This document shows positions 5,721 through 32,000 of a stretch of 32,000 bases of DNA, piece after piece (the first letter of the stretch is position 1; each line of letters opens with the position of its first letter). Both the position numbers and the translations under genes were made by a program. The notes beneath the pieces were generated by a model. The model was not told the origin of the DNA and searched no databases. It saw nothing but the letters and a program-made list of their open reading frames with translations. The stretch spans positions 1 to 32,000 of the forward strand of contig NZ_BJXX01000047.1 in NCBI RefSeq assembly GCF_007991215.1, in the 5' to 3' direction. Origin of the DNA: Aneurinibacillus danicus (GTDB taxonomy: Bacteria; Bacillota; Bacilli; Aneurinibacillales; Aneurinibacillaceae).

Positions 5721-5924
5721 GTGTCCGCAGAAAAAGAAGAACGAAACCAAACGATCGATTATATTTTGGATGCGCTGCAAGGACTGCAATATGGATCGAT
5801 TCAAATCACCATCCATGATTCAAAAATTACACAAATCGATCGTTTGGAAAAGCAACGCTTCCCATTTCAGCGGTCGTCTTCTTCAACAACTGATGTATCG
5901 AGATTCTCGTCTAAAAGAAAGTAA
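5721..5924 (+). CDS. yezD: YezD family (DUF2292) small protein
   Basis: GTG start at 5721 after the AAGGGGGTG SD. The 67-aa product contains YILDALQGLQYGSIQITIHDSKITQIDRLEKQR, typical of YezD-like proteins that accompany sulfur-assimilation genes. No clear terminator separates it from cysA. Confidence 0.75.
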   Translation: MSAEKEERNQTIDYILDALQGLQYGSIQITIHDSKITQIDRLEKQRFPFQRSSSSTTDVSRFSSKRK

Positions 5925-5960
5925 CAAACGAAACCACACCGACAGCCGATCGGTCAACCG

Positions 5961-6011
5961 AAGGCTCCGGCTCTACTTGCCTGCCAGTACGCAAGGGAGC
6001 GGGAGCCTTTT
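5961..6011 (+). terminator. probable terminator after yezD
   Basis: Long hairpin AAGGCTCCGGCTC...GAGCGGGAGCCTT (12 of 13 bp) with an inner CTTGC/GCAAG stem, followed by TTTTG. Confidence 0.55.
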
Positions 6012-6060
6012 GTATGTACATTACACTTGACTTATCAACATTCTTATTGTGGTACGAAGG

Positions 6061-17551: not shown

Positions 17552-18838
17552 ATGTCTCTTTATTTTTTTGAACCAACGTTAGAATGCGCCCGGCAGTTGG
17601 ATCAAAACGATAGACTTTCCCGCTTTCGCAGCGAGTTTTACTTACCTCCTACCTCCATTTACATGGATGGAAATTCGCTGGGCCTTCTTTCCAAGAGAGC
17701 GGAGAAAACATTGTTGGAATCTCTGGATGATTGGAGAGAGCTGGGGATTGGCGGATGGAGCAGAGGAAACCATCGCTGGTTTTATCTGTCAGAGCGACTG
17801 GGGGAGATGAGTGCGCCATTAGTGGGAGCTGCTCCTGATGAAGTAATCGTAACTGGCTCTACCACGGTGAATTTACATCAACTGGTGGCTACTTTCTATC
17901 AGCCCGAAGGAAAACGAACCAGGATTCTAGCGGATGAGCTTACTTTTCCATCCGATATTTATGCGCTGCAAAGCCAGCTTCGTCTGCACGGATACGAGCC
18001 GGATACGCATCTTATTCAGGTAAGAAGCCGGAATGGCAGATTCCTTGAAGAGGAAGATATCATTGCCGCTATGACGGACGAGATTGCTCTCGTTATCCTG
18101 CCGACCGTTCTTTACCGCAGTGGTCAAATCCTGGATATGGAGCGATTGACAAAGGAAGCCCATGCCCGCGGAATTTTGATCGGATTCGACGGATGCCATT
18201 CCATTGGGGCAATCCCGCATTCCTTTAGTGAATGGGGTGTAGATTTTGCTTACTGGTGCAACTACAAGTATGTAAACGGCGGTCCCGGCTGTGTGGGTGG
18301 ATTGTATGTTAATCGGAAGCATTTCGGGCGTCATCCAGGTCTGGCCGGGTGGTTCGGTTCAAAAAAAGACAAACAGTTTGACATGGAGCATACGCTGACG
18401 CCGGCGGAAACAGCGGGTGCTTATCAAATTGGAACGCCCCATATATTGAGTCTTGCTCCTTTGATCGGCTCTCTGGAAATTTTTGCAGAGGCTGGCATTG
18501 AGAACATTCGCCGGAAATCCCTGCATATGACCCGGTATTTGATGGATTTGCTTGAACACGAGCTTCCGAATATGGGTTTTGTCATTGGAAATCCGAGAGA
18601 TGACAGGCGCCGGGGAGGGCACATTAGCCTTGAGCACGAAGAGGCCGCGCGCATCTGCAAATCGCTGAAAGAAAACGGTGTCATTCCCGATTTTCGTGCG
18701 CCTAACATGATTCGTCTTGCGCCGATCGCGCTCTATACCTCTTATGCGGAGATTTGGAAAGCCGTACAAACGCTGAAAAATATAATGGAAGAAAAACAAT
18801 ACAAAAAATTTAAGAACGAGCGCGAAGTGATCGCTTAA
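17552..18838 (+). CDS. kynU: kynureninase
   Basis: 428 aa with an AGGAGG SD. Typical kynureninase N-terminus and PLP region ([11 protein letters not shown]). Confidence 0.9.
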
Positions 18839-18904
18839 TTATCAAGTGGAATTAGCCGAAAGCGGATAAAAAGCCCATTTGTGAAAGCGGAGGGGGAAAA
18901 CGTC

Positions 18905-19762
18905 ATGCCGCACATGAACAAAAATGAGGACGATGCCAAGTCGGGATTAGGAAAAGACATTCATACTGATTTTAAAAAAGAGATGTCTTACGGAGATTAT
19001 CTCCAGCTTGATAAGGTATTGTCCAGTCAACAGAGATTGTCCGCGCATCATGATGAAATGCTCTTTATTATTATTCATCAGGCCAGCGAGTTATGGATGA
19101 AGCTGATTTTACATGAGCTATCCGCAGCCATCCGGTGTATCCGCTGCGGCGAGCTGGAAGCGCCGTGTAAGATGTTATCCCGTGTTTCCAGAATACAGCA
19201 GCAGTTGATTCAGTCATGGAGTGTCCTGTCCACTCTGACACCGGCTGAATATATGGAGTTCAGGGATAAACTGGGCCATGCATCCGGATTCCAATCTTAC
19301 CAAAACAGGCTGATCGAATTTGCTCTTGGAAATAAAAACGTTCATATGCTGGCCGTTTTTCGGCATCAGCCTGAACTGTATGCCCAAATGCAGAAAGCGC
19401 TTCATGAGCCCGGCCTTTATGACGCGGCGATTGAAGCGCTGGCAGCCCGCGGACTGCCGATTGATGGGGAGTGTCTTGGAAGGGATCTATCACAACAGTA
19501 TCAGCCTCATGCCAGTGTGGAAGCCGCCTGGCTGACTGTGTACCGCAATGTGGATAAATACTGGGATTTGTATGAGCTGGCGGAGAAAATGGTGGATATC
19601 GGAAGCGGGCAACAGTTGTGGCGGTACAATCATATGATCACGGTGGAACGTATTATCGGCCATAAACAGGGAACCGGCGGATCATCGGGTGTTACGTATT
19701 TAAAAAAGGCGCTGGAGCAGCACTTTTTCCCTGAATTATGGAGTTTGAGAACGAAGCTGTAA
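18905..19762 (+). CDS. kynA: tryptophan 2,3-dioxygenase
   Basis: ATG at 18905 after GGAGGGGG. Contains the [14 protein letters not shown]...[19 protein letters not shown] motif of TDO. Confidence 0.9.
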
Positions 19763-19786
19763 GCGGAGTCCAACGGAGGGGTACCG

Positions 19787-20413
19787 ATGAATTCATGGAT
19801 TGACATTTCCCAGCGGCTGGACGAAAAGGCGGCCGTTTGGCCGGGGGATACGCCTTTTTCCTATCGGCTGAATTGGGGAAAGCGGGACAGCGGATCGGTC
19901 AATGTAGGTCAGATCACCATGAGCGTGCATACAGGTACGCACATTGATGCTCCTTTTCATTTTGATGATGAAGGAAAGCGGGTGATTGAACTGGACCTGG
20001 ATGTATATATTGGTCGTGCCCGTGTCATTCATCTGCCCGGCACTGACAGGATTGGTTTGAATGAATTGAATAGCATAGGGATAGAGGGAGTAAACCGGCT
20101 ATTGATTTATACAGGTGCCTGGCGGGACCGGAGTGTTTTCCCGGAGAACATCCCCCATGTACAGCCTGAAGCAGCTGCCTATCTTTCGGAAAAAGGGGTT
20201 CGCCTGATTGGCCTGGATTTGCCTTCTGTCGACCCGTTGGACAGCAAAGAGCTGCCCGCCCACCATAGGCTGACCCGTTACGGGATTCACATCCTGGAAG
20301 GAATCGTGCTGGACGATGTACCGCCCGGAGACTATGAACTAGCGGCTCTTCCATTGCCTCTGGCAGAAGCGGATGGAAGTCCGGTGAGGGCTGTACTAAG
20401 AAAGTGCCGCTAA
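19787..20413 (+). CDS. kynB: kynurenine formamidase (cyclase family arylformamidase)
   Basis: HTGTHIDAPFHF metal-binding motif, 208 aa, and kynurenine-operon context. Confidence 0.9.
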   Translation: MNSWIDISQRLDEKAAVWPGDTPFSYRLNWGKRDSGSVNVGQITMSVHTGTHIDAPFHFDDEGKRVIELDLDVYIGRARVIHLPGTDRIGLNELNSIGIEGVNRLLIYTGAWRDRSVFPENIPHVQPEAAAYLSEKGVRLIGLDLPSVDPLDSKELPAHHRLTRYGIHILEGIVLDDVPPGDYELAALPLPLAEADGSPVRAVLRKCR

Positions 20414-20461
20414 CGAATCGGCGGATGCTTCGGGAAGAATGAACAACGTGGAAGCGAATAA

Positions 20462-20487
20462 GCCGGCCTGCTTTTAGGCCGGTTTTT
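20462..20487 (+). terminator. rho-independent terminator after kynB
   Basis: CCGGCCT-gctttt-AGGCCGG followed by TTTTTT. Confidence 0.85.
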
Positions 20488-20578
20488 TATGATATTGCCT
20501 TTATAAAAGTAAGTAATAAGCGTTACTGTACTTTCATAAAGTTAGTAATGTACAAAAATATAAACGGAGGGTTGCAAA

Positions 20579-20965
20579 ATGGCGGACGCTGGAATTTTAC
20601 TTATCCGTTTGGTTATTGGCTTAACTTTTATGGGGCATGGTGCACAAAAGCTGTTTGGCTGGTTTGGCGGCTATGGACTGAAAGGCACCGGTGGATGGTT
20701 GGAGTCTATTGGTGTGAGACCGGGTGTATGGATGGCCTTTCTGGCCGGAGCAGGGGAGCTGGTGGGAGGTGCTTTGTTTGCGGCAGGCATTTTGACGTCG
20801 GTTGGTGCTGCGCTTATCGTCATCATTATGCTGGTCGCCACTTTTACTGTACATGCGAAAAACGGATACTGGGCAACCGCAAACGGGTTTGAATACAATT
20901 TGGTTTTGATTGCCATCGCGATTGGCGTAGCGCTGATCGGTCCCGGTTCTTATACCCTTTTCTAA
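20579..20965 (+). CDS. DoxX family membrane protein
   Basis: 128 aa with four TM segments. The [21 protein letters not shown] motif is typical of DoxX/MhqP/CatD-like proteins. Confidence 0.85.
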
Positions 20966-21009
20966 ATGATTGTTCGCTCCCGCCTATTATGGTAAGCCGT
21001 TCAACAACG

Positions 21010-21038
21010 AAAACCCGGAATTTAGAGTTCCGGGTTTT
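21010..21038. terminator. bidirectional terminator between doxX (+) and the pspA homolog (-)
   Basis: AAAACCCGGAA-tttagag-TTCCGGGTTTT. The A/T tracts are symmetric on both sides, and it lies between convergent genes. Confidence 0.8.
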
Positions 21039-21075
21039 CATGCTGCCCAGGTGTCTCGACAGCGCTTACGGATTG

Positions 21076-21744
21076 TCAAGATAAAATCCGGGTTTTCTTT
21101 AGGTTCTCTAATTCCTTCTGTACCTCTTCTTCAAGAGCAGCGTCCTTCATATAGGAAGAAATGATTTGCGAATCCTGGAGCAGTCTACTGTTTGCCTCGA
21201 CCTCAGCCTCCATCATCAAAATTCGTTCTTCTGCACGAGCCACCCCTTTCGTTATGGTTTCTGTACGCAAGAAAACGGATGTATTGTGCATCTGTTTCAT
21301 CGATTGAGCTACGTTGAGCCTGGAGAGTAAAAGGAGCCTCTTGTGCTGCAATTCATTATATTTCTTCTTGAGTTGATTCAGCTTTTCGCATAGCGCGCCT
21401 GTCTGGTTTTTAATCGTTTCATACTGTTCTTTATACAGTGTTACTTTTTTCTCCAGGCTCAGTTTTTCCTGCAAGGCCAGCTTTGCGATGGCTTCTTCCT
21501 CCTGATCCACAGCCAGTTTCGCCTGGCGCGTCCTTTTGGCTATCATTTTCTCTGTGTTTAGTATAAGTGCCAACTGTTTCTTTTCGAGGAAAATTTGGTT
21601 TGAAAGAGCCTGCTGTCCTTTGGCAATTCCCGCCTCCATCTCCCGCACATAGTGGTTCAGCATGGTAATCGGGTCTTCTATCTGATCGAGCAGCCTGTTT
21701 ATTTCAGCCGTGGTAATGTCCTTGATACGTTTAAAAATTCCCAT
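21076..21744 (-). CDS. PspA/IM30 family protein (LiaH-like)
   Basis: ATG at 21744 after AAGGAGG. The N-terminus MGIFKRIKDITTAEINRLLDQIEDP is the PspA signature, followed by a long coiled coil. Confidence 0.85.
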   Translation of the reverse strand: MGIFKRIKDITTAEINRLLDQIEDPITMLNHYVREMEAGIAKGQQALSNQIFLEKKQLALILNTEKMIAKRTRQAKLAVDQEEEAIAKLALQEKLSLEKKVTLYKEQYETIKNQTGALCEKLNQLKKKYNELQHKRLLLLSRLNVAQSMKQMHNTSVFLRTETITKGVARAEERILMMEAEVEANSRLLQDSQIISSYMKDAALEEEVQKELENLKKTRILS

Positions 21745-21745
21745 G

Positions 21746-22162
21746 TTATTGTTCCTCCTTATGATTTGTTTGGTTTGCTTGCTTTTTTTCCCACTCATCT
21801 AAGAGATCTAGCTGATGGGGATTGGTGGTATAGCTGTAAAAAGAAACCGGCGCTTCTGTGATTGCATGATTGAAATGGCGTGTGCCTCTTTTTTTCAGCA
21901 GCCATCCGATTATGACAGCGATGAGCGCCAACCAGAAAACAAGGGATAAAGCAGTGCCAATGAAATAGAACATGCCCGCCGGGTGGTGTTCAGACATAAA
22001 ATGGGGACGTCCATGCCCATAACCGGGATGGAATGATGGAGGACCATGATGCGCTGCATGCATGTCCGGTCCCCCCGGCATTCCCATAACCCATTGGATA
22101 GCAAGCAGAATAAAGAGGGCTGCCAGCATCCATAGTACGACTTTCCATGCTTTTGTTTTCAT
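21746..22162 (-). CDS. small two-TM membrane protein with a His/Gly/Pro-rich extracytoplasmic loop
   Basis: AAAGGAGGAAAG SD. TM1, then GGPDMHAAHHGPPSFHPGYGHGRPHFMSEHHP, then TM2, then a charged tail. Its stop lies 1 nt from the pspA-homolog start, and the SD for that gene is embedded in its last codons. Confidence 0.75.
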   Translation of the reverse strand: MKTKAWKVVLWMLAALFILLAIQWVMGMPGGPDMHAAHHGPPSFHPGYGHGRPHFMSEHHPAGMFYFIGTALSLVFWLALIAVIIGWLLKKRGTRHFNHAITEAPVSFYSYTTNPHQLDLLDEWEKKQANQTNHKEEQ

Positions 22163-22200
22163 TATCTTTCCTCCTTTGGCTTGTCCTTTCGACAGATTTG

Positions 22201-22233
22201 ATTATAGGAGGGAATGGTGAAAGAATGGTGAAA
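22201..22233 (-). promoter_or_regulatory. response-regulator-dependent promoter for the membrane protein / PspA genes
   Basis: The minus strand reads TTTCACCATTC TTTCACCATTC (perfect tandem 11-mers, 22233-22212), then cctcc, then TATAAT (22206-22201). Confidence 0.7.
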
Positions 22234-22248
22234 ACCAAGGAGGCAGCG

Positions 22249-22282
22249 AAAAAAGAAAAAGCGCAACGGATAGCGTTACGCT
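22249..22282 (-). terminator. terminator after the histidine kinase gene
   Basis: The minus strand reads GCGTAACG-ctatc-CGTTGCGC followed by TTTTTCTTTTTT. The kinase stop codon lies in the 5' arm. Confidence 0.7.
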
Positions 22283-23694
22283 TTTTGGCGCACAATCGGC
22301 ATCATAACGGTAAAAGTGCTCCCTTTTTCCGGTATGCTGGAAACTTGAATCGTTCCATGATGGGCTTCTGCGATCCACTTGGCAATCGACAGACCAAGAC
22401 CGGTTCCTCCCATTTGCCTGGATCTGTTTTTATCTACTCTGTAGAACCGATCAAAAATGCGGCCTTGTTCCTCAGGCGGAATGCCGATACCGGTGTCTTG
22501 AACAACGATACGCAAGGCCTGCTGTTTTTCACGCGATGCGGCGGAGAGCGTAAGGCTTACACTCCCTTCATTCGGCGTGTATTTAATGGCATTATCTAGC
22601 AGGATATAAAGCAACTGTCTTATCCTTTCATGATCGCCGTGAACCGTCAGCGTCGAAGGTGCGTGGAACTGAAGGTTGATGTTCTTGGCTTGCGCAAGGG
22701 TTTGTGCAGACCGGATCAATTGTTCCACCGGCGGGATCAAATCAAAGGTTTCATAGCGAAGAACCGGTACTCCGGAATCGGAACGCGCCAGCGTTAATAA
22801 ATCACCGACCAAATGCGTCATCCGCCTGACTTCATTTTTCATATTGGATAATACGTTTTGAGAGAACCCTGACATCTGCTTGCTTTCCTCCATTTCGAGA
22901 ACATCAAGAGAGGATTGCAGAATACTCAGAGGGGTCCTCAGTTCATGGGAAGCGTCCGCGACAAACTCCCGCTGCCGGTGAAAAGAATTTCGAATGGGAA
23001 TCATGGCTCGCTTGGACATGAAATAGCTAAGCCCGAGCGCAATGCCCAAAAACAGGAGTCCCAATGTAACTAAAATGGCAAGCAGCCGGCGGATCAATTC
23101 ATAGTAAAAGGAAATGTCTTTTCCCGTATAATAAATCCCTACCAATTGATCCCCTAGATAAATGGCTCGGCCGGTCATCATCAAATCGATAGGATGCCGC
23201 TCTTCTTCATGAGGCGGTCCTTTACGAAGAGGCCCCTCATGCGGGCCGCCGCGTCTGGGAGGATGGATGGTAATAGTCCCATAATGGATTTCGTTCGATT
23301 GGGGCATCCACCCCTGGAGGAGGCGTAAAATTTCCGGCTGGCTCCGACCAATGACCGCCTCTCCAAAAAGAATTCTTCCGCTTGGATTTATCACATAGTA
23401 AAAAAATTGATTTCCATTCTCTTGCGTTGTATTGATATTGTCCAACTCCTGCTGGCTAAGCACTCCATCTTTCAGTGCATTTTTAATTTCGAGCGTTTGT
23501 TGGTCGGCGAGGATGTGGAGCTGCTGCTCTTGTTCACGAGAGATTGTTGTGTGGACCAAAAAGTACACTATGGTAATAAACAGCGTAAGGAAAACCATAA
23601 TTAACACGCTGTATTGAAAGGTGAGCCGGGTTTGTGTATGGATAAATACGTCTTTTTTCCAATGTTGAATGCGTGATAGCCAATTAAATCTCAA
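22276..23694 (-). CDS. sensor histidine kinase (two TM segments, about 170-aa extracytoplasmic domain)
   Basis: H-box ASHELRTPL, N-box LDNAIKYT, G-boxes DTGIGI and GGTGLGLSI. The start is uncertain. I favour TTG at 23694 (11-nt overlap with the RR gene) over the far upstream ATGs in the track ORF. Confidence 0.8.
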   Translation of the reverse strand: MRFNWLSRIQHWKKDVFIHTQTRLTFQYSVLIMVFLTLFITIVYFLVHTTISREQEQQLHILADQQTLEIKNALKDGVLSQQELDNINTTQENGNQFFYYVINPSGRILFGEAVIGRSQPEILRLLQGWMPQSNEIHYGTITIHPPRRGGPHEGPLRKGPPHEEERHPIDLMMTGRAIYLGDQLVGIYYTGKDISFYYELIRRLLAILVTLGLLFLGIALGLSYFMSKRAMIPIRNSFHRQREFVADASHELRTPLSILQSSLDVLEMEESKQMSGFSQNVLSNMKNEVRRMTHLVGDLLTLARSDSGVPVLRYETFDLIPPVEQLIRSAQTLAQAKNINLQFHAPSTLTVHGDHERIRQLLYILLDNAIKYTPNEGSVSLTLSAASREKQQALRIVVQDTGIGIPPEEQGRIFDRFYRVDKNRSRQMGGTGLGLSIAKWIAEAHHGTIQVSSIPEKGSTFTVMMPIVRQKA

Positions 23695-24358
23695 GTTTAT
23701 ATCCCACCCCGCGAATGCTTTGAATGATGTCCCTTTGACCGGCCTCATGTAATTTCTTGCGAAGCAATTTAACGGTGGCATCAATGGTTTTCATTGTTGC
23801 ATCAGAATCATATCCCCAAATCCTGTCATAAATAACGTCGCGGGAGAGGACTTGTCCTTTGTTGCGAATCAACAAATCCAACAGTTGAAATTCCCGTGGT
23901 GTCAGCAAAATTTCTTTCTCTTTAGATGAGACTGTACGGTTCGTAAGGTTCACTGTAATATTCTGTATCTGCACGATTTGCTCTTGGATCGGCGCATAGT
24001 TCCGTCGGGTTAATGCACGGATTCTCGCAAGAAGTTCATCTATCTCAAACGGTTTGATCAAGTAGTCATCTGCTCCCGCATCCAATCCGATAATCCGGTC
24101 TTGAAGGGCATCTCTAGCCGTCAGCATAATGATGGCACCTGAATATCCTTCTTTTCGCAGGCGGGTGCATATGCTCACCCCTTCTTCGCCCGGCAGCATC
24201 CAGTCGAGAATGAGCAGGTCATAATGAGATTCTATAGCATAATCGTACACATCATCTCCTTGAGTAAGCCATTCTACTTTGTATCCCCCCTTTTTTTTCA
24301 AAAGGTGAGCAATGAGCTCGCCCAAGACCAGATCATCTTCAGCCAATAAAATGTTCAC
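23684..24358 (-). CDS. OmpR/PhoB-family response regulator
   Basis: Receiver domain (DLLILDWMLPG) plus a winged-helix output domain (RGVGYKL). AAGGAGGAGG SD. Confidence 0.9.
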   Translation of the reverse strand: MNILLAEDDLVLGELIAHLLKKKGGYKVEWLTQGDDVYDYAIESHYDLLILDWMLPGEEGVSICTRLRKEGYSGAIIMLTARDALQDRIIGLDAGADDYLIKPFEIDELLARIRALTRRNYAPIQEQIVQIQNITVNLTNRTVSSKEKEILLTPREFQLLDLLIRNKGQVLSRDVIYDRIWGYDSDATMKTIDATVKLLRKKLHEAGQRDIIQSIRGVGYKLEI

Positions 24359-24410
24359 AGGTCCTCCTCCTTATATAGAAGCTACGGTTTTTTGTTTATT
24401 TACTTTTATG

Positions 24411-24443
24411 ATTGTAAACGACCTTGGTGAAAAACGCGTAAAA
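24411..24443 (-). promoter_or_regulatory. autoregulatory promoter of the two-component operon
   Basis: The minus strand reads TTTTACGCGTT TTTCACCAAGG (24443-24422), then tcgtt, then TACAAT (24416-24411). The repeat / 5 nt / -10 geometry is the same as at 22201-22233. Confidence 0.6.
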
Positions 24444-24463
24444 AATCTATATTCCCCGCAAAA

Positions 24464-24496
24464 TTTCACTGTTTTTTCACCATCCATGCCTAAAGT
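24464..24496 (+). promoter_or_regulatory. third promoter of the same architecture, driving the PepSY-TM gene
   Basis: TTTCACTGTTT TTTCACCATCC (24464-24485), then atgcc, then TAAAGT (24491-24496). Confidence 0.6.
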
Positions 24497-24581
24497 AGGA
24501 ATTGTTTAAAACAAAAGGTCGTAGTAAGGAGCGTGTATGTATGAAAAATGCTAAAAACTTTATAGATGAGGAGACAGGATT

Positions 24582-25043
24582 ATGAAAAAAAGACGCCAGT
24601 TACATTTGTGGATTGGATTACTTACTTCTTTCTTTATACTAATTGAAGCTATTACGGGGCTTCTTCTGTCTGAGCCGTGGCTTATCGGGATGGACAAGGG
24701 TGAAAGGCGACCGGGAATGGAGCAACGAGCGTCATTTTCAACCCGGGAAAAGGGGAGTCTCCCTTCTCAAAGCACGAATCAAAGTGAAAGCGTGCTGTCT
24801 CAGGCCGGTAAACCGGGAGCAATTTCTCCAGAAGAGGACAGGGGAGGTTTTGGTCTTATGGGTTTTATTAGAGGGCTTCACGAGGGAAGGATTGGGGGCA
24901 CAAACGTTAAAATCCTGGTGGATATTACGGCGATAGGCTTAATTATTCTTACTGTAACAGGTATCACTTTATCGATTCAAATCGTAAGGGCGCAGAGTAG
25001 AAGGAAAAAAACAATCAAAGGTGTTCAAGACAAGGTGGTTTAA
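24582..25043 (+). CDS. PepSY-associated TM helix protein
   Basis: The N-terminal LHLWIGLLTSFFILIEAITGLLL and C-terminal LHEGRIGG...ILVDITAIGLIILTVTGI helices are typical of the PepSY_TM family. GAGGAG SD. Confidence 0.75.
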   Translation: MKKRRQLHLWIGLLTSFFILIEAITGLLLSEPWLIGMDKGERRPGMEQRASFSTREKGSLPSQSTNQSESVLSQAGKPGAISPEEDRGGFGLMGFIRGLHEGRIGGTNVKILVDITAIGLIILTVTGITLSIQIVRAQSRRKKTIKGVQDKVV

Positions 25044-25180
25044 TATTGACAAGAAACCCTGGTGGCGACTCAAATTGCAGTATAGTGCTCCCTTTCTCTT
25101 CTCTTTTACATATGATATAGAAAGAAGCTTGGATAAAGCGGGTGATAAGCGTGTCGGAGGGAAGGCGGAAGCATGGAAAG

Positions 25181-25924
25181 ATGGGAAAATGGGAATTGTG
25201 GAATTTTTTTGCCTCTGATGAAACCATAAGACCGTATCTGCCGTCTACGGCGATGTTTTCCGAACATACACTGCGCTCCTACTTGGCAATGTATCCGCTC
25301 GTTTTTGTAAAACCGGACAACGGACGAGGGGGCAGAGGCGTTGTGAAGATTTGGCGTACGAAGGAGGGGTATACGTTTATCCGGGAGCGGGGCCGTATAG
25401 TTCGCTGCCGAACGATGGAAAGATTATATAGGAAAATAAAACAAGACCTGCAGCCCGGGAAACGATATGTGATTCAGGAAGGGGTTCGGCTGGCAAAAAT
25501 CAACGGACGCCCATTCGATATTCGGTTGGCTATGATGCGCAAGAGCGGAAGGTGGGAGGCGATCGGGATGCTGGCCAAGGTAGCGGGACCAAATAGCGCG
25601 GTGACTAATATTGCACGGGGGAAGGGTTATGTAACAGGTGTACGGAATGCGCTGAAAAAAGCCCTTGGCCTTCGCGATGACGCCATCGATGTCCTGCAGG
25701 ATGAAATGAAAGAAGTAGGATATAGAATTGGGGAGAAATTTGACGAATTCCGAACGTACGAGCAAATCGGACTGGATTTTGCAGTGGATAGAAACGGCAA
25801 GCTCTGGGTAATTGAGGAAAACATCGGTTCTTCCCGGTCGCTGTTCGTACGGCTAAAAGACAAATCGGTGTATAGGAAGATGCGGAGCATGAATACGGCC
25901 CGCAGACGGCGTAAGCCGCAATAG
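25181..25924 (+). CDS. YheC/YheD family ATP-grasp protein
   Basis: VFVKPDNGRGGRGV...IQEGV...GRPFDIR...GLDFAVDRNGKLWVIEEN is the YheC/D ATP-grasp pattern. The start is uncertain: ATG at 25181, or GTG at 25142 or 25151. Confidence 0.75.
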   Translation: MGKWELWNFFASDETIRPYLPSTAMFSEHTLRSYLAMYPLVFVKPDNGRGGRGVVKIWRTKEGYTFIRERGRIVRCRTMERLYRKIKQDLQPGKRYVIQEGVRLAKINGRPFDIRLAMMRKSGRWEAIGMLAKVAGPNSAVTNIARGKGYVTGVRNALKKALGLRDDAIDVLQDEMKEVGYRIGEKFDEFRTYEQIGLDFAVDRNGKLWVIEENIGSSRSLFVRLKDKSVYRKMRSMNTARRRRKPQ

Positions 25925-25972
25925 CAAAAGAAGCGTCGACCGGTTTAAAGTTGACCATTAAAACGAGGACGG

Positions 25973-26000
25973 CAGCCTCCCGGAATAGTTGGGGAGGCTG
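25973..26000 (+). terminator. hairpin after the YheC/D gene (weak terminator candidate)
   Basis: CAGCCTCCC-ggaatagttg-GGGAGGCTG. There is no clean T-run. Confidence 0.4.
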
Positions 26001-26028
26001 TAGGTTTAGGATGACATATTAAAACAGA

Positions 26029-26070
26029 AGCACCCTGCCTATCCTAAATTTTAGGAACACGCAGGGTGCT
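26029..26070 (-). terminator. long hairpin, probable terminator for the minus-strand YhfH-like frame
   Basis: AGCACCCTGC...CCTAA-att-TTAGG...GCAGGGTGCT. On the minus strand it is followed by TCTGTTTTAAT. Confidence 0.55.
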
Positions 26071-26103
26071 ATCCATATCATCTACCGCCATTCGCTCCCC
26101 TCT

Positions 26104-26259
26104 TTATTCATGGTTGTGACCAAAACAGCGCTCACATTCATAGATAGAAGGTTCTATTTGTTCTTCGATAAAGTCGCCGCATTTACGGCACTCTTTTTCA
26201 TGAGCAAGAAGTTTGGAAAGCGATAGAGAGGATTCGCTAAGATGACGGCGAATGTATTC
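26104..26259 (-). pseudogene. YhfH-like mini zinc-ribbon frame without a canonical start codon
   Basis: The stop-to-stop frame encodes EYIRRHLSESSLSLSKLLAHEKECRKCGDFIEEQIEPSIYECERCFGHNHE* (CxxC...CxxC). It contains no in-frame ATG, GTG or TTG. An ATG lies one frame off, immediately before an A5 tract. Confidence 0.4.
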
Positions 26260-26325
26260 TTATTTAGGCAGATGTAATAAACTTTTGAATATTAAATTAG
26301 CAGCATGGGGAGGGAAGGAGCATAC

Positions 26326-27117
26326 ATGCTTCGGTTTTCAGCAAATATAACAACACTGTATCCAGATGTTCCGTTTCTTGAACGGTTTGGCAAAGCACGC
26401 GCAGCAGGTTTTCGGTATGTGGAGTGTCAATTTCCCTACGCTCACAGTATTGCGGATCTTCAAGCGCAGCTGCAAGAGCATGAGCTCGAACTTGTTTTGT
26501 TTAATCTACCACCTGGCGATTGGCAGCGGGGCGAGCGAGGTCTGGCGATTGATCCGAAGCGCCGGGAGGACTTCAAAGAGAGCGTGACAACAGCGCTTCG
26601 CTATGCTACGGAGCTGGGCTGTTCACGACTTCATTGTATGGCCGGTATCCTGCCTGATGGACTTGAACATGGGGAAGCCTATGCAGTGCTGCACGATAAT
26701 GTGGCATATGCGGTAGCAGAAGCGGCACAATATGGTATTACGATCCTTATCGAACCGATCAATCAAATCGACATGCCGGGATATTATATGTCATCATTGA
26801 CGTTAGCCGAGCGATTCATCAGAGAATTTGATTCACCACATGTCCGTTTGCAGTTTGATTTCTATCATATTCAACGCATGCAAGGAGAATTGCTGAACAG
26901 TTATTCGAAAGTGGCTCCGCTCGTCGAACATGTCCAAATCGCCGATCATCCCGGAAGGCACCAGCCCGGAACGGGTGAGATTGATTATGTGAAAATTTTT
27001 GAGATGCTTGAAGCTACTGGATACAACGGATTCATTGGGTGTGAATACACCCCTTTTGGAGACACGGATGACAGTTTGCATTGGCTTTGGAAGTGGCAGA
27101 AAGGGGAAGAGAAATGA
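26326..27117 (+). CDS. hyi: hydroxypyruvate isomerase family (Hyi/OtnI-like TIM barrel)
   Basis: ATG at 26326 after GGGAGGGAAGGAG. MLRFSANITTLY...FRYVECQFPY...IEPIN...FDFYH is the Hyi pattern. Confidence 0.8.
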   Translation: MLRFSANITTLYPDVPFLERFGKARAAGFRYVECQFPYAHSIADLQAQLQEHELELVLFNLPPGDWQRGERGLAIDPKRREDFKESVTTALRYATELGCSRLHCMAGILPDGLEHGEAYAVLHDNVAYAVAEAAQYGITILIEPINQIDMPGYYMSSLTLAERFIREFDSPHVRLQFDFYHIQRMQGELLNSYSKVAPLVEHVQIADHPGRHQPGTGEIDYVKIFEMLEATGYNGFIGCEYTPFGDTDDSLHWLWKWQKGEEK

Positions 27118-28013
27118 TCGTTGGATTTATCGGGTTAGGAGTCATGGGCTCGCGTATGGTAAAGCAGATGAGAGCTTCAGGATACGAAGTCTACGTCTAC
27201 AATCGTTCGGAATCGAAGCTGACATCAGCCATGGCTGCAGGAGCTATACCGTGTGTAAGCATTGCTGAGGTAGCAAGAAGAGCGGATGTTTTATGTACCT
27301 GTCTGTCCATGCCTCACGATGTAGAGATGGTATATGGAGGAGAACAGGGTGTGTTTGCCCATGCCAAAAAAGGAACGATTTGTATCGACTTTACAACTGT
27401 GGATCGGGATACAAGCATACGAATGCATAAGCTTGGTCAGCAGCACCAGGTGTACTATCTTGATGCGCCGGTGAGCGGGGGGCCAGAGGGAGTCGAAAAG
27501 GGAACGTTGACGATTATGGTAGGAGGGGAGGAGCGCATATTTACGCAGGTGCACCCTCTCCTGCAAACCATCGGCGAGAACATACAGTATTTAGGGGAAA
27601 GCGGATCGGGAAGTGTGGCCAAGCTGTTGAATCAATATCTTGTCGCTGTTCATTCCTTGGCAGCCAGCGAAGTAATGGTGGCCGGAGCGGCACTCGGCCT
27701 GGACGCCGAGCAACTTTATGATGTCTTACGTGCCAGCTACGGAGATAGCCGTATGCTGCGCAGACATATGGAAGGATTCGTGCTTGACCGGCAGTTTGCC
27801 CCCGGTGGTGCGGTGAAGTATTTGCTCAAAGATGTCCGCCTGGCCAATCAAATGCTCTTGCAAGCAAACGTGTCAGTACGTACGGGTCAAGCGGCAGAAA
27901 CAGCTTTTGAAGAGGCAACAAAGCAAGGATTGGCTGAGCTTGATATGTCGGCAGTGATTCAACCGCTGGAACGGAAAGCAAATGTTATTGTGCAGCGTTC
28001 CAAATATAAATAG
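27114..28013 (+). CDS. NAD(P)-dependent 3-hydroxyacid dehydrogenase (tartronate semialdehyde reductase / 3-hydroxyisobutyrate dehydrogenase family)
   Basis: ATGA start/stop overlap with hyi. Rossmann motif GFIGLGVMGSRM. Family motifs DAPVSGG and GSGS.AKL.NQ. Confidence 0.85.
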   Translation: MIVGFIGLGVMGSRMVKQMRASGYEVYVYNRSESKLTSAMAAGAIPCVSIAEVARRADVLCTCLSMPHDVEMVYGGEQGVFAHAKKGTICIDFTTVDRDTSIRMHKLGQQHQVYYLDAPVSGGPEGVEKGTLTIMVGGEERIFTQVHPLLQTIGENIQYLGESGSGSVAKLLNQYLVAVHSLAASEVMVAGAALGLDAEQLYDVLRASYGDSRMLRRHMEGFVLDRQFAPGGAVKYLLKDVRLANQMLLQANVSVRTGQAAETAFEEATKQGLAELDMSAVIQPLERKANVIVQRSKYK

Positions 28014-28020
28014 TGCACAA

Positions 28021-28132
28021 GGTCTTTCCCTCCATGAGTAATTGAGGAAAAACCTGCGAGGCGTGTGCCGACCGTTGCTTTTTTCGTGTGGACCTTAAGG
28101 GAGGGAAAGACCGGCAACGCCCGCGAGTTTTT
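28021..28132 (+). terminator. complex inverted-repeat region with two T-runs (probable terminator; possible alternative folds)
   Basis: A perfect 13-bp inverted repeat: GGTCTTTCCCTCC (28021-28033) and GGAGGGAAAGACC (28100-28112). A second interleaved pairing joins CTGCGAGGCGTGTGCCG (28055-28071) with CCGGCAACGCCCGCGAG (28111-28127). T6 lies at 28079-28084 and T5 at 28128-28132. Confidence 0.45.
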
Positions 28133-28393
28133 CTTATGAATCATTTTTTTTATAACCTTGTATTGATTAAAGTATCGTATTCATCTACAATGCCTAAATT
28201 ATATTCCAGTGAATGCTCACAATAATAGCACTTTTCCATATCCGTTCCTCCATTCATGTAATAAACTTGTGTTCATATGTTTTCCCTGTATATTTTTCTC
28301 AAAGCCCTTGTCCTTTATTAGGACGAATTTTGAAAAATTATTTTTTCCGTTATCAAGCTGTCTAATTAGAAAAGAAGAGAAGGGCAACGTATA

Positions 28394-28402
28394 TGGTATA
28401 AT
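28394..28402 (+). promoter_or_regulatory. extended -10 element (TGgTATAAT), candidate hfq promoter
   Basis: TGGTATAAT lies 69 nt upstream of the hfq start in a 330-bp AT-rich, ORF-poor spacer. No good -35 is present. Confidence 0.4.
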
Positions 28403-28470
28403 GGTATAGTAGAAGAGGAGCAATGAAGCGTACCACTGTTTTTACTACATAGAGGGAGGAATGTTATCCA

Positions 28471-28692
28471 TTGGAAAAAGCAAAACTTCAAGATTATTTC
28501 TTAAATCAACTACGTAGCAACAAAATCCCGGTTACTGTTTTTACAATAAATGGTGTACAAATGCGGGGGCTTATCGCTTCCTTTGATCAATATACGGTTG
28601 CTATACAGGTTGAAAACAAACAAAATATTCTCTACAAAGCAGCCATTTCCACCATTGTCCCTTTGAAGCCTGTTTCGCTAACAACGAAATAA
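28471..28692 (+). CDS. hfq: Hfq-family RNA chaperone, divergent paralog
   Basis: TTG start after AGAGGGAGGA. The Sm1/Sm2 fold is collinear with B. subtilis Hfq (LQDYFLNQLR...VTVFTINGVQMRG...FDQYTV...LYKAAISTIVP). It is not in the usual miaA-hfq context. Confidence 0.85.
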   Translation: MEKAKLQDYFLNQLRSNKIPVTVFTINGVQMRGLIASFDQYTVAIQVENKQNILYKAAISTIVPLKPVSLTTK

Positions 28693-28859
28693 AAAGGCCG
28701 CTTCTCCATTTAAACGTGCGAGAAAAACAAATTGTTAGCTTCCCTAGCGCATATCTTTACTTTTCTTCTTTCCGACTTCGCTCTCTTCCTTCTACCTCGC
28801 TCCACTACCAGAATGTCGGTATATCAAGTGTGATTTATATAGACAACCCATCCCCGCGG

Positions 28860-28891
28860 CAGTCGCCCCTCACCCAGGGCGGCTGTTTTTT
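28860..28891 (+). terminator. rho-independent terminator about 170 nt downstream of hfq
   Basis: CAGTCGCCC-ctcaccca-GGGCGGCTG (one G-U pair) followed by TTTTTT. Confidence 0.8.
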
Positions 28892-28954
28892 ATGGGCGAA
28901 AACATGCTATGAAGTGCCAAATTTTCGCCTGTTTATACCAAAAAAAAGTATACG

Positions 28955-29028
28955 CCTATCAATTTCGACAAGAATATACAGAAAATGATAAGAAAAATAT
29001 TGGCATGCGTTTTGCCTATATTGATAGG
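28955..29028. promoter_or_regulatory. operator-like inverted repeats upstream of mftA
   Basis: CCTATCAAT (28955-28963) and its exact reverse complement ATTGATAGG (29020-29028). The second site is embedded in the 14-bp palindrome CCTATATTGATAGG (29015-29028). Confidence 0.4.
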
Positions 29029-29064
29029 TGTACGAAAAATCAGCAAAGAGAGGGGGAACATAGT

Positions 29065-29178
29065 ATGGCACCTCAAGCAGCGCTCTTGGAAATTGAAGAG
29101 TTGATGAATGAGCCGGAAGTGTTGGATGAACTTATGGTAGAGGAAATGACCATTGATTGTATCTGTGGCGTCTATTAA
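29065..29178 (+). CDS. mftA: mycofactocin precursor peptide MftA (37 aa)
   Basis: The internal ATG at 29065 follows AGAGAGGGGG. The product is MAPQAALLEIEELMNEPEVLDELMVEEMTIDCICGVY. The acidic leader and C-terminal ...ID..CGVY match the MftA hallmark (mycobacterial ...IDGMCGVY). It lies immediately upstream of mftB/mftC homologs. Confidence 0.85.
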   Translation: MAPQAALLEIEELMNEPEVLDELMVEEMTIDCICGVY

Positions 29179-29235
29179 TCTACTTTTCTTAACAAAGGCT
29201 ACCCGTCCAGTAATCGTGACGGAGGAGGTACAAAT

Positions 29236-30042
29236 ATGAAGTCGTTTGAAAATAAAGTTGTCATGATTACTGGAGCGGCAAGAGGACAGGGGAGAAACCA
29301 TGCGGTGAAATTTGCCGAGCTCGGCGCCAAGCTTATTGTCTGTGATATTTGCGAAGATATAGAAGGGGTAACGTATTCACTGGGGACAGAAGAACAATTT
29401 TCTGTTTGTCTTGAAGAGATTACACATAAAACAAACGGACAGGTTGTAAGTGCACGCTGCGATGTACGTGATAGCACGTCTGTTACGAGGCTGGCAGAGC
29501 AAGGAATTAAGCGTTTTGGTCGAATTGATGTTCTGGTAAACAATGCGGGAGTGTGCAATATCAAACCTGCGTGGGAAATTAACGACGTTGATTGGGATGC
29601 GATGATCGGCGTGAATTTAACCGGTACATGGAATAGCTGTAAAGCCGTAATTCCTGTGATGAAAAACCAGCATTATGGCCGGATTATTAATGTCGGGTCG
29701 ATCGCAGCGATGAAAGGCATCCCTAATTTAGTTCATTATACGGCCGCCAAACACGGTGTCGCAGGGCTAACGAAAGCTTTAGCCATTGATCTTGCTCCTT
29801 ATGGAATTACGGTTAATTGTATTTGTCCGGGCTCTGTAGACACAGACATGCTGGCTGGACTGGCACCTGAAATCGAGGCAGATGTATATGAAGCGAAAAC
29901 TTTATTTGCCAGCTATCACTTATTACCCGGACTCATTCAGCCGGAAGATACGACCGAGCTTGTAATGTGGCTCGCTTCCGATGCGTCCCGGTCGGTGACC
30001 GGAGCAGTCTGGAATATGGATAGAGGATGGGCACAGCGATAA
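29236..30042 (+). CDS. mycofactocin-coupled SDR family oxidoreductase (carveol dehydrogenase-like nicotinoprotein type)
   Basis: The TGAARGQGR glycine-rich motif is characteristic of the mycofactocin-associated SDR subfamily. Catalytic motif YTAAK. NNAG motif. Confidence 0.8.
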   Translation: MKSFENKVVMITGAARGQGRNHAVKFAELGAKLIVCDICEDIEGVTYSLGTEEQFSVCLEEITHKTNGQVVSARCDVRDSTSVTRLAEQGIKRFGRIDVLVNNAGVCNIKPAWEINDVDWDAMIGVNLTGTWNSCKAVIPVMKNQHYGRIINVGSIAAMKGIPNLVHYTAAKHGVAGLTKALAIDLAPYGITVNCICPGSVDTDMLAGLAPEIEADVYEAKTLFASYHLLPGLIQPEDTTELVMWLASDASRSVTGAVWNMDRGWAQR

Positions 30043-30061
30043 GAAAAGGAGAATACGGCAT

Positions 30062-30328
30062 ATGAATGAACAAACAAAATATCGTTTGCGCGACGAAGTG
30101 AAAGTGAGAAAAGAAAAATTTGGCGGACTTGTTTACGACCACAAGGATGGCAAGCTTCAGTTTATTCATTCACATTTGATCATGTGTTTTTTAGAGAATG
30201 ACGGAACATATTCTGTTCAGGAAATGGCAGAAAAAATCGCTCCGGGGAAAATAAAAGGAAACGCAATGGAATTTATCATGAAAAGTTTAACGGATCTTCA
30301 TAAAGGAGGAGTCATACATGAAGTATGA
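30062..30328 (+). CDS. mftB: mycofactocin biosynthesis chaperone MftB (PqqD-like RiPP recognition element)
   Basis: 88 aa with a YRLRDEVKVRKEKFGGLVYD... PqqD-type N-terminus. It sits between the precursor/SDR genes and the radical SAM gene. Confidence 0.8.
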   Translation: MNEQTKYRLRDEVKVRKEKFGGLVYDHKDGKLQFIHSHLIMCFLENDGTYSVQEMAEKIAPGKIKGNAMEFIMKSLTDLHKGGVIHEV

Positions 30329-31349
30329 ATGGCTGCTTGAAGGACTGACGGCTCCGATTTGTGTAACATGGGAAGTGACGTTTGCTTGTAATTTAAGTTG
30401 CGAACACTGCTTGTCCGCTTCCGGAAAGCGGAAACCGGATGAGTTGACATATGAAGAAGCAAAAGCAATGATCGATGATTTGGCCGCTATGGGCGTCTGT
30501 TATATAAACATCGGAGGAGGAGAACCTCTGATGCGTCCAGATTTTCTTGAGTTAGTAGAATACGCGGGGGAAAAAGGGCTACCCGTACAATTCAGCACAA
30601 ACGGTACGCTTATAACAGAGAAAATGGCTAAGAGGATTGCCGCTATCCCGCATGTCCGTGTCCAGGTTAGCATTGACGGGGCAACAGAAGAAGTCAATGA
30701 CAGTATACGGGGAAAAGGAAGTTTTGCCGGCGCACTGCGGGCGGTTGAATTACTAAGCAAGGAAAACATCGAACTTTCGGTAAACATGGTAGCCACACGC
30801 AGCAATTTTGATCAGATCGAGGATTTATATCAAATTGTAAGAGGACACGGAGCAAAATTTCGCGTAGCACGTCTTCGTCCGTCCGGCCGAGGGATAGACA
30901 GCTATCATTACCTGCATTTAACGCCGGAACAAAATATACAGCTGTACCAATGGGTAAAAGCTCATCCTGATGTAACGACAGGCGACTCTTATTTTATTCT
31001 TTCCGCTTTAGGAGAACCGATTCCCGGACTGAACGTTTGCGGTGCATCACGGGCCACATGTTGTATTACACCAACAGGCAATGTATATCCATGCGCATTT
31101 CTCATCAATGATGATTGTATGGTAGGAAACATTCGCGAGAAGCCGCTTTCGCAAATGTGGATTGATACTCCTTTATTTGAAAAATTCCGCACGACAAGGG
31201 TTAAAGCATGTTTGGGCTGTCCAAGTTACAACGATTGCGGTGGTGGATGCCATGCGGTGAGCTACCATTTAACAGGCGATTTGTTTGAAAAAGACCCGGA
31301 ATGTCTGATTTCTTACAGGAAGACAAAAAGAAAAGAGGTAACGGTATAA
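30318..31349 (+). CDS. mftC: mycofactocin radical SAM maturase MftC (SPASM domain)
   Basis: 11-nt overlap with mftB. CNLSCEHC radical SAM cluster motif in the context LTAPICVTWEVTFACNLSCEHCLS. Cys-rich SPASM C-terminus (CGASRATCCITPTGNVYPC...CLGCPSYNDCGGGC). Confidence 0.9.
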   Translation: MKYEWLLEGLTAPICVTWEVTFACNLSCEHCLSASGKRKPDELTYEEAKAMIDDLAAMGVCYINIGGGEPLMRPDFLELVEYAGEKGLPVQFSTNGTLITEKMAKRIAAIPHVRVQVSIDGATEEVNDSIRGKGSFAGALRAVELLSKENIELSVNMVATRSNFDQIEDLYQIVRGHGAKFRVARLRPSGRGIDSYHYLHLTPEQNIQLYQWVKAHPDVTTGDSYFILSALGEPIPGLNVCGASRATCCITPTGNVYPCAFLINDDCMVGNIREKPLSQMWIDTPLFEKFRTTRVKACLGCPSYNDCGGGCHAVSYHLTGDLFEKDPECLISYRKTKRKEVTV

Positions 31350-31382
31350 AGGTAAATTAACGTATTGCGAGGCGGGGGAACT

Positions 31383-32000
31383 GTGAGTATAACAAAGCAA
31401 AAACAATTGCTCGCTCCCTTAACTATAGGTTCCATAGAGATACCTAACCGTGTAGTTTTTGGGGCGCATCCGACAAACTTTGCCGAGAAAAATATACCGG
31501 GGGAAAGGCATCTGCATTATTACGAAGAAAGAGCCAGAGGCGGAGCCGGTCTTATCATTGTAGAAGAAGGATATGTGCACGAGTCTGACTTTCCTTATGA
31601 ATATGCCATTCTAGCTTATAAACCGGAAGTAACGGAAGGATACAGGCAGCTCACTGATGCTGTTCATAAGTATGGTACAAAGATATTTGCACAGTTAGGT
31701 CACAGCGGGAGCCAGGCAGACAGCAGCCTGAGCCAGCGGGAACTATGGTCACCTTCCGGATTTCAGACAGATGCGGAAGTACCGAAGATTATGGAGCAGG
31801 AAGATATTCAGGCGGTAGTACGGGGATTTGTTACCTCTTCCCGGCATGTTAAGGAGGCGGGCGTTGACGGCATCGAATTAAATGGCGGGCAGCGTTCATT
31901 GATTCGTCAGTTTATGTCAGGACTAACGAATCATCGGCAGGATGAATACGGGGGAACGCTGGAAAATCGTTTGCGGTTTGTTAGAGAGATTATCGCTGCT
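31383..32000 (+). CDS. Old Yellow Enzyme / FadH-type FMN oxidoreductase, 5' part (runs off the window)
   Basis: It is absent from the ORF track because no stop is reached. GTG at 31383 follows GGCGGGGGA. The frame is open for 206 codons: ...LAPLTIGSIEIPNRVVFGAHPTNF...ERARGGAGLIIVEE...IFAQLGHSG...GVDGIELNG...NHRQDEYGG, the classic OYE N-terminal TIM-barrel motifs. Confidence 0.8.
   Translation, partial: MSITKQKQLLAPLTIGSIEIPNRVVFGAHPTNFAEKNIPGERHLHYYEERARGGAGLIIVEEGYVHESDFPYEYAILAYKPEVTEGYRQLTDAVHKYGTKIFAQLGHSGSQADSSLSQRELWSPSGFQTDAEVPKIMEQEDIQAVVRGFVTSSRHVKEAGVDGIELNGGQRSLIRQFMSGLTNHRQDEYGGTLENRLRFVREIIAA

Follow-up and report, generated by a model that had tools for sequence, protein, structure and literature searches.

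A putative OmpR-type two-component regulon with a PspA/IM30 homolog and a small His-rich membrane protein in Aneurinibacillus danicus

Introduction

PspA/IM30 proteins form the ESCRT-III-like machinery with which bacteria repair their membranes. To our knowledge, their recruitment and regulation are poorly known outside Escherichia coli and the Lia system of Bacillus subtilis. In the Lia system, LiaR is a NarL/LuxR-type response regulator that recognises an inverted repeat, and LiaS is an intramembrane sensor controlled by LiaF. The PspA homolog LiaH is anchored at the membrane by LiaI (PMC9239133). Here we analysed a window of 32,000 nucleotides (nt) from Aneurinibacillus danicus (contig NZ_BJXX01000047.1, positions 1 to 32,000), in which five genes across 21076 to 25043, four on the minus strand and one divergent on the plus strand, encode a PspA/IM30 homolog, a His-rich membrane protein (here called HisTM), a sensor histidine kinase (HK), an OmpR/PhoB-type response regulator (RR) and a small PepSY_TM protein. 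Three promoters of this locus carry tandem 11-bp repeats, which are probably RR operators at activator-dependent promoters, as judged by sequence comparison.

In the pho-box mode, regulators bind as head-to-tail dimers to 11-bp direct repeats that replace the -35 element. BqsRS/CarRS of Pseudomonas aeruginosa is an OmpR-type Fe(II)/Ca2+ sensor system with PepSY-domain proteins in the bqsPQRST operon and a tandem-repeat box. In Mycobacterium tuberculosis, MprAB controls PspA indirectly, through a sigma factor and ClgR, and the partner proteins are PspM and PspN. This MprAB-SigE-ClgR-PspA pathway, which is named in PMC11237479, has an OmpR-type two-component system upstream of the PspA response. 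In CiaR promoters, TTTAAG-N5-TTTAAG is followed by 10 nt to the -10 element (PMC3091779). Two large surveys of the neighbourhoods of phage shock protein (PSP) genes mention pspA-linked two-component operons only generically and are silent on OmpR-type control, on PepSY and on any His-rich partner (PMC11237479, PMC9239133).

The initial annotation of the window had remarked that a PspA homolog under an OmpR-type system was not known to be a characterised circuit. Our literature search agreed with this remark, as no paper was found in which direct control of a PspA homolog by an OmpR-type system, together with these partners, is characterised. A full-text search combining PepSY, PspA and two-component systems returned nothing, and a search for a TTTCAC direct repeat together with a response regulator returned only a PhoB paper. 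For B. subtilis YkoGH, which is encoded with the PepSY proteins YkoIJ, the literature search gave nothing on a box or a regulon.

Results

Three promoters with the same repeat geometry

The repeat and -10 strings that had been quoted for three promoters were all found in the window exactly as quoted. Upstream of the HisTM-pspA pair, the minus strand carries the perfect 11-bp tandem repeat TTTCACCATTC TTTCACCATTC (box 1, 22233 to 22212, at about -39 to -18), the spacer CCTCC and the -10 hexamer TATAAT (22206 to 22201). Upstream of the RR-HK operon, the same strand carries TTTTACGCGTT TTTCACCAAGG with one mismatch (box 2, 24443 to 24422), the spacer TCGTT and the hexamer TACAAT (24416 to 24411). 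The promoter of the divergent PepSY_TM gene on the plus strand consists of TTTCACTGTTT TTTCACCATCC (box 3, 24464 to 24485), the spacer ATGCC and the hexamer TAAAGT (24491 to 24496). All three boxes are intergenic and oriented toward the downstream gene, and boxes 2 and 3 lie back-to-back, 20 bp apart. The geometry common to the three sites is a 22-bp repeat, 5 nt and a TAnnnT hexamer.

We searched the window with the pattern TTTCACNNNNNTTTCAC (TTTCAC-N5-TTTCAC, at most one mismatch). Exactly three matches were found, where 0.18 are expected, and three matches were attained in none of 100 dinucleotide-preserving shuffles of the window. When the window was scored with a weight matrix derived solely from the boxes of other species, box 3 (29.9 bits) and box 1 (27.3 bits) ranked first and second, with a shuffle maximum of 21.2 bits. 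Counting matches to TTGACA 16 to 18 nt from the -10 hexamer gave 0 to 2 of 6 positions at the three promoters (0 to 1 of 6 at the HisTM-pspA promoter), and by this count none of them has a -35 element. A sigma-70 promoter scan of the window listed none of the three sites.

If transcription starts 7 nt past the -10 hexamer, the leaders would be 32, 46 and 79 nt long, and each terminates in a strong ribosome-binding site of the AGGAGG type. The 79-nt leader of the PepSY_TM gene also contains a 5-codon upstream open reading frame (24537 to 24554; MYEKC, stop) with its own AAGGAG ribosome-binding site. This reading frame may be incidental; it is not conserved in Geobacillus, whose leader measures about 32 nt. 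An Rfam scan of 20400 to 26400 found no RNA family, and therefore no known riboswitch or small RNA in the leaders.

The RR-HK operon ends in an intrinsic terminator recognised by folding (22245 to 22286, minus strand), which consists of a 13-pair stem (22286 to 22256), a loop and the T-tract UUUUUCUUUUUU, with a centroid energy of -15.6 kcal/mol and z = -2.3. It overlaps the kinase stop codon (22276 to 22278). The initial annotation had placed a terminator between the kinase gene and the effector promoter and had concluded that the effectors form a separate unit. The terminator is present, and it insulates the effectors at this locus; in A. soli, however, the effector box begins 2 nt past the kinase stop, which leaves no space for a terminator, and the effectors therefore do not form a separate transcription unit everywhere.

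Conservation of the box in orthologous loci

HK orthologs with 46 to 81% identity were found in Aneurinibacillus, Ammoniphilus, Brevibacillus, Paenibacillus, Priestia, Neobacillus, Geobacillus, Ectobacillus, Thermicanus, Collibacillus and other genera, and 17 orthologous loci were compared. A mechanical scan for the box (at most two mismatches, TAnnnT at 5±1 nt) gave 24 sites in 14 orthologous loci, with the consensus TTTCAC(C/T)nWTT TTTCA(C/T), in both halves of which T1-3 and A5 show little or no variation. Boxes of this geometry (11 + 11 + 5 nt and the -10 hexamer) precede orthologous RR genes and genes of the same effector classes; they were found in at least 15 other loci of about 10 genera. 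Before the RR gene it was found in Aneurinibacillus, Ammoniphilus, Brevibacillus, Geobacillus, Ectobacillus, Priestia, Thermicanus and Collibacillus. In Aneurinibacillus sp. BoGa-3 (locus L090) and in a metagenome contig (L092), three boxes each could be read directly. In P. camerounensis (L008), whose HK is 41% identical, TTTTAC half-sites precede both the RR gene and the HisTM-pspA pair in the same architecture. Weak box-like arrangements before a multicopper oxidase gene (L087) and before the RR genes of L005 and L006 were not counted as sites.

As a specificity control, we used 828 kb of DNA around unrelated histidine kinases (L009 to L081), which came from a scan with the kinase alignment. 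Boxes with at most one mismatch and a correctly spaced -10 hexamer occurred 20 times in 238 kb of orthologous loci, as opposed to none in the 828 kb of control DNA.

Genes preceded by the box

In most orthologous loci the box stands before the RR-HK operon itself. In Priestia megaterium it precedes a longer operon, Acyl_transf_3-PrsA-x-RR-HK, and in L092 it precedes PepSY_TM-RR-HK. The HisTM-pspA pair is preceded by a box in 10 of 11 loci (L001, L004, L005, L006, L007, L008, L082, L083, L090 and L092). The pspA gene lies directly 3' of the HisTM gene in all 11, with a gap of 2 to 10 nt at the box-preceded pairs. In Geobacillus proteiniphilus a distance of 3.5 kb, with unrelated genes in it, separates the pair from the kinase gene, and the box is present there too. 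Small PepSY_TM genes are preceded by a box in L001, L002, L007 and L092, and in L088 such a gene is the last one of a box-preceded exporter operon. Further targets are genes for an HlyD/YknX-type adaptor with an ABC/FtsX (MacB-type) exporter (L003 and L088) and genes for secreted or wall-associated proteins, namely two repeat proteins without family assignment (L090 and L092) and a protein with a Cu_amine_oxidN1 domain (L085). The targets thus include PspA with its proposed membrane partner, exporters of the MacB type, an operon for PrsA and an O-acyltransferase, and secreted proteins. With this content, the regulon looks like a cell-envelope or membrane stress response.

Two neighbourhoods deserve separate mention. 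In Collibacillus ludicampi (L089, 13297 to 17395), homologs of B. subtilis yngB, yngA, ykcC and ykcB, with the domains NTP_transferase, GtrA, GT2 and PMT_2 plus YkcB_C, lie near the two-component system; these are reported YclJ-regulon genes. On the metagenome contig SNQW01000003.1 (L091), a HisTM-pspA pair lies at 4850 to 6060. The orthologous two-component system is absent within 5 kb of this pair, and only a distantly related RR/HK system was found, 3 kb upstream.

The response regulator and its link to the box

The RR (23684 to 24358, minus strand, 224 residues, GTG start) contains Response_reg (PF00072, 92.7 bits) and Trans_reg_C (PF00486, 86.8 bits) domains, both above cutoff. The catalytic residues are all present in the translation: DD (8-9), D in LILDWMLPG, T in MLTARD and K in LIKPF. 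The closest solved structures are BasR/PmrA, RegX3 and PhoP from M. tuberculosis (E of about 1e-40), in agreement with the initial assignment of the adjacent regulator to the OmpR/PhoB type. None of the NCBIfam equivalog cutoffs was reached by the RR. The best score was that for RppA (221.8 against a cutoff of 250), and the scores for PhoB (202.6 against 296.2), the heavy-metal subfamily (191.1 against 279.2) and PieR (139.9 against 450) were also below cutoff. The PieR and PieS models were outscored by the RppA, PhoB, MtrA and CopR models.

The half-site and the recognition helix of the RR vary together across loci. The recognition helix KTIDATVKLLRKKL, which the A. danicus RR shares with the core orthologs, goes with the half-site TTTCAC; the helix YKNVDVTVKMLRDKL in L008 and L010 goes with TTTTAC; and the helix NNxLDALVKLVRKKI in L016 and L017 goes with TTTCAG/T, which stands before their own RR genes. 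Of the computational evidence, this co-variation speaks most strongly for the adjacent RR as the reader of the repeats.

Three of these loci belong to distant homologous systems, found in Paenibacillus glycanilyticus, Viridibacillus and Lysinibacillus, whose HKs are 31 to 37% identical. Their boxes (L010 at 5238; L016 at 3299 and 7772; L017 at 5266) have TTTTAC or TTTCAG half-sites before RR genes in the same 11 + 11 + 5 + (-10) architecture, and the recognition helices differ accordingly. The boxes seem to make up a wider, related family.

The sensor kinase

The HK gene (22276 to 23694, minus strand, TTG start) overlaps the RR gene by 11 nt at its start and encodes 472 residues. Its HisKA (PF00512, 61 bits) and HATPase_c (PF02518, 110.6 bits) domains place it among the class I (HisKA) kinases, and the motif SHELRTPL is invariant in 40 HK orthologs. 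The score against the heavy-metal subfamily model was below cutoff (173.9 against 292.55). Between two transmembrane helices lies an extracytoplasmic region of about 150 residues, which was modelled as a PDC-like fold (helix-helix-beta2-helix-beta-loop-beta2) with a predicted local distance difference test score of 85.9. F50 and Y141 are invariant in the sensor alignment, in which His, Cys, Met and acidic residues are nowhere invariant. The His/Pro-rich insert HPPRRGGPHEGPLRKGPPHEEERHP is lineage-specific and not conserved outside Aneurinibacillus.

HisTM, the PspA homolog and the PepSY_TM protein

HisTM (21746 to 22162, minus strand, 138 residues) is a His/Gly/Pro/Met-rich two-helix membrane protein without a match in Pfam or NCBIfam. 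An exhaustive HMMER search of 1.84 billion representatives gave 26 clusters for this family, compared with two proteins from a word-index search and two loci from a metagenome scan with a narrower HisTM alignment. All members begin with a transmembrane helix, which is followed by a disordered His/Gly/Pro/Met-rich loop (consensus GxGxxHxMxGxHxxGGFH), a second transmembrane helix and a C-terminal helix. In the AlphaFold2 model these elements correspond to residues 2-27, 28-62, 63-94 and 115-137, respectively. The C-terminal helix carries the motif DxLDxWEK, in which D122, W124 and E125 are invariant. By the positive-inside rule, this helix would be cytoplasmic, where PspA resides. The gene adjacency and the conserved motif make it conceivable, at somewhat less than even odds in our judgement, that the helix docks PspA at the membrane.

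The pspA gene (21076 to 21744, minus strand) starts 2 nt past the HisTM stop and encodes a full-length family member of 222 residues, since the PF04012 match (109.6 bits against a cutoff of 33.9) spans residues 2 to 218. It scored below the equivalog cutoffs for LiaH (NF045984, 116.3 against 380) and PspA (TIGR02977, 84.1 against 242.95). The PepSY_TM protein (24582 to 25043, plus strand, 153 residues) has two transmembrane helices and matched PF03929 with 49.6 bits (cutoff 28.8). The match is confined to profile positions 178 to 291 of 295, in the C-terminal part, so the protein is a half-size member. An alignment of five orthologs showed the conserved motifs RxxHLWIGL...EAxTGLLL and LHEGRxG.

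Genomic surroundings of the locus

HisTM is 100% identical to an A. danicus hypothetical protein, and the HK is 100% identical to a protein in assembly GCA_022702995.2. The contig JAKIMJ020000186.1 (L001) is 99.6% identical to the window over 21087 to 32000, apart from a 219-bp insertion or deletion at 28203/28204. The homology ends inside the last pspA codons (21087), and the regulon is therefore located at a synteny breakpoint. Beyond pspA, the window continues with DoxX and kynurenine-pathway genes, and the L001 genome continues with a LysR regulator and a xanthine-dehydrogenase-like cluster.

Elsewhere in the window, 17552 to 20413 contains a likely kynurenine-pathway trio, consisting of a 428-residue kynureninase-like protein, a 293-residue tryptophan 2,3-dioxygenase-like protein and a PF04199 cyclase/formamidase, of which only the last was profile-scanned. 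An Hfq gene lies at 28471 to 28692 (TIGR02383, 91 against 61.7). A mycofactocin biosynthesis cluster, here in a Bacillota genome, occupies 29065 to 31349. It comprises an mftA precursor of 37 residues ending in ...IDCICGVY (TIGR03969, 29.7 against 25), a mycofactocin-coupled short-chain dehydrogenase/reductase at 29236 to 30042 (299 against 300) and the radical S-adenosylmethionine maturase mftC at 30318 to 31349 (TIGR03962, 423.9 against 265). The L001 annotation places an MftB-like gene between them.

Discussion

The initial annotation had read the repeats as an OmpR/PhoB operator layout that replaces the -35 element. This reading is strengthened by a geometry that is conserved, specific to orthologous loci and co-varying with the recognition helix. 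In the mechanism that we propose, the membrane kinase would sense an extracytoplasmic or membrane cue through its PDC-like domain and phosphorylate the RR. The phosphorylated RR would then bind the two 11-bp direct repeats as a head-to-tail dimer at about -39 to -18 and recruit RNA polymerase from the -35 position, that is, class II activation of sigma-A promoters without a -35 element. Three outputs would follow: positive autoregulation of RR-HK through the weak box, expression of the small PepSY_TM membrane protein, whose probable role is to assist the apparatus for sensing or response, and expression of the bicistronic effector unit of HisTM and the PspA/IM30 homolog. The cytoplasmic DxLDxWEK helix would act on PspA in the way that LiaI acts on LiaH. 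The combination of a weak autoregulatory box with two strong effector boxes suggests a graded output.

Several observations weigh against this proposal. The autoregulatory box 2 scored only 11.4 bits, fifth in the window and within the window background, and therefore its credibility comes from its position, geometry and conserved location rather than from its score. The initial claim that the window appears to hold the sensor, the autoregulatory loop and two target promoters stands for the genes, the boxes and their conservation, with a weak match at the autoregulatory box. L087, L005 and L002 lack a clear autoregulatory box, and at L091 the HisTM-pspA pair comes with neither a canonical box nor an orthologous two-component system linked to it. 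The G+C content is higher in the control loci (50.7% vs 44.7%), which somewhat lowers their chance rate. Finally, we infer activation rather than repression from the box position and the missing -35 element only, and RR binding and the transcription starts are likewise predictions from the sequence.

The most serious alternative concerns the signal rather than the regulatory architecture. The system could respond to metal stress (Cu, Zn or Ni), with the HisTM loop and the kinase insert binding the metal. The His/Met/Gly-rich loop consensus and the insert in the Aneurinibacillus kinase would fit such a role, and the CusS sensor domain was among the fold matches of the kinase sensor. In Paenibacillus sp. 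HWE-109 (L087, 9590 to 9660), the ortholog is followed by a three-domain multicopper oxidase gene, in front of which stands the weak box-like arrangement TTTCATTAACT TATCATTCTTC TGTTA TATTAT, and this is the sole hint that ties the two-component family to copper. However, the invariant sensor positions are F50 and Y141 instead of potential metal ligands of the His, Cys, Met or acidic kind, the insert is not kept in other genera, and the CusS match was no better than that to WalK. In addition, the kinase (173.9 vs 292.6) and the regulator both fell short of the heavy-metal subfamily cutoffs. The targets include no metal ATPase, cation diffusion facilitator transporter or metallochaperone, whereas PspA, the MacB-type exporter and PrsA fit envelope stress. 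We consider a metal response unlikely. A sharper departure would be that the RR represses by occluding the -35 region, or that a different, unlinked regulator binds the repeats. OmpR-family members can indeed repress, and the position of a box alone leaves the sign unfixed. However, the lack of a -35 element at all three promoters is characteristic of promoters that depend on an activator, CiaR-activated promoters have the same spacing, and an unlinked regulator fails to explain a box that accompanies the orthologous two-component system and changes along with its recognition helix, which makes both variants improbable.

The locus might also be the local ortholog of YclJK from B. subtilis or PieRS from Listeria. 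These Bacillota systems are OmpR-type as well, and their 11-bp direct repeat TTCATAnTTTn (consensus TTCAT-AG-TTTGT-TCATATTTN) has the same TTCAY core and the same 11-bp period (PMC9545042). Their regulons contain a MacB-type ABC pair and PrsA, classes that are also among the targets found here, and the C. ludicampi ortholog (L089) adjoins ykcBC/yngAB-like genes. However, the half-site is CAC(C/T) rather than CATA, with TTTCAC(C/T) in place of TTCATAG in the box, and PspA, HisTM and PepSY_TM have not been reported in the YclJ or PieR regulons (PMC9545042). We rejected this orthology, which the similar box and the L089 neighbours had raised, on the NCBIfam scores, which were far under cutoff for PieR (139.9 vs 450) and PieS (129.1 vs 850); it is very unlikely to hold. 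Chance similarity in T-rich promoter DNA is the least credible explanation, and we regard it as close to negligible. Promoter regions are A+T-rich and box 2 is weak, but no shuffle reached three matches, the -10 spacing is identical at all three sites, two sites lie 6 to 9 bits over the best shuffle, and the box is kept across genera and absent in the control loci.

With operators of the RR as the preferred reading of the repeats, a broader picture can be outlined, which is speculative and which we hold as possible rather than probable. HisTM would be a new family of PSP partners that docks a divergent PspA paralog through its invariant cytoplasmic DxLDxWEK helix, and its disordered outer loop would report a signal at the cell surface, for example metal or damage to the wall. 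HisTM, the PDC-type kinase and the half-size PepSY_TM protein would then make up a so far undescribed, OmpR-controlled membrane-protection module that replaces LiaRS-LiaIH or exists beside it in several Bacillales lineages.

Comparison with known systems

The closest functional analogue is LiaRS-LiaIH of B. subtilis, in which a two-component system likewise drives a bicistronic unit for a small membrane anchor plus a PspA homolog. However, each component belongs to another family: the RR described here is OmpR-type and reads direct repeats, and the kinase has a PDC-like extracytoplasmic domain. No LiaF/LiaG-like gene was found in 20400 to 26400, and Pfam and NCBIfam scans detected no relation of HisTM to LiaI. 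In promoter architecture, the nearest system is CiaRH of Streptococcus, with an OmpR-type regulator, hexamers of 11-bp period, 10 nt to the -10 element, no -35 element and an envelope-related regulon (PMC3091779). It differs in the half-site (TTTAAG vs TTTCAC), in the recognition helix (VVEVYVSKVRKKL vs TIDATVKLLRKKL in the present RR) and in the kinase sensor, and its regulon includes HtrA and the small RNAs called csRNAs as opposed to PspA, HisTM and PepSY_TM. The same repeat mode is used by PhoB/PhoP at the pho-box of E. coli and B. subtilis, by PmrA/BasR and by PhoP of M. tuberculosis, and BasR/PmrA and PhoP are among the nearest solved relatives. However, PhoB/PhoP respond to another signal and control another regulon, and the present RR misses every NCBIfam equivalog cutoff.

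Two systems of B. anthracis were also considered and set aside. EdsRS is encoded in another operon (edsRSAB), and its targets are an ABC transporter and clsT, without PepSY or PspA; the CiaR-like BAS0540 has a TTTAAG box and so belongs to a different family. BqsRS/CarRS resembles the present system by description only, in combining an OmpR-type regulator with PepSY-type proteins and a tandem-repeat box, but it is proteobacterial and has no PspA module. Compared with MprAB, the box described here lies directly on the promoter of the pspA operon.

These comparisons overturn no concept, as the promoter logic is the textbook OmpR/PhoB mode known from CiaR and pho-box geometry; what is new is the content of the regulon, not the mechanism. 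The locus is a compact and legible circuit of a sensor, a regulator with a sharp box, and a PspA paralog with a tiny partner that carries an invariant motif. The circuit is kept from Aneurinibacillus to Geobacillus, and its box is a ready pattern with which genomes of other Bacillales can be searched to annotate the regulon. Set beside the known systems, the regulon is a variant of the two-component control of PSP modules that is phylogenetically conserved and includes a new family of small partners.

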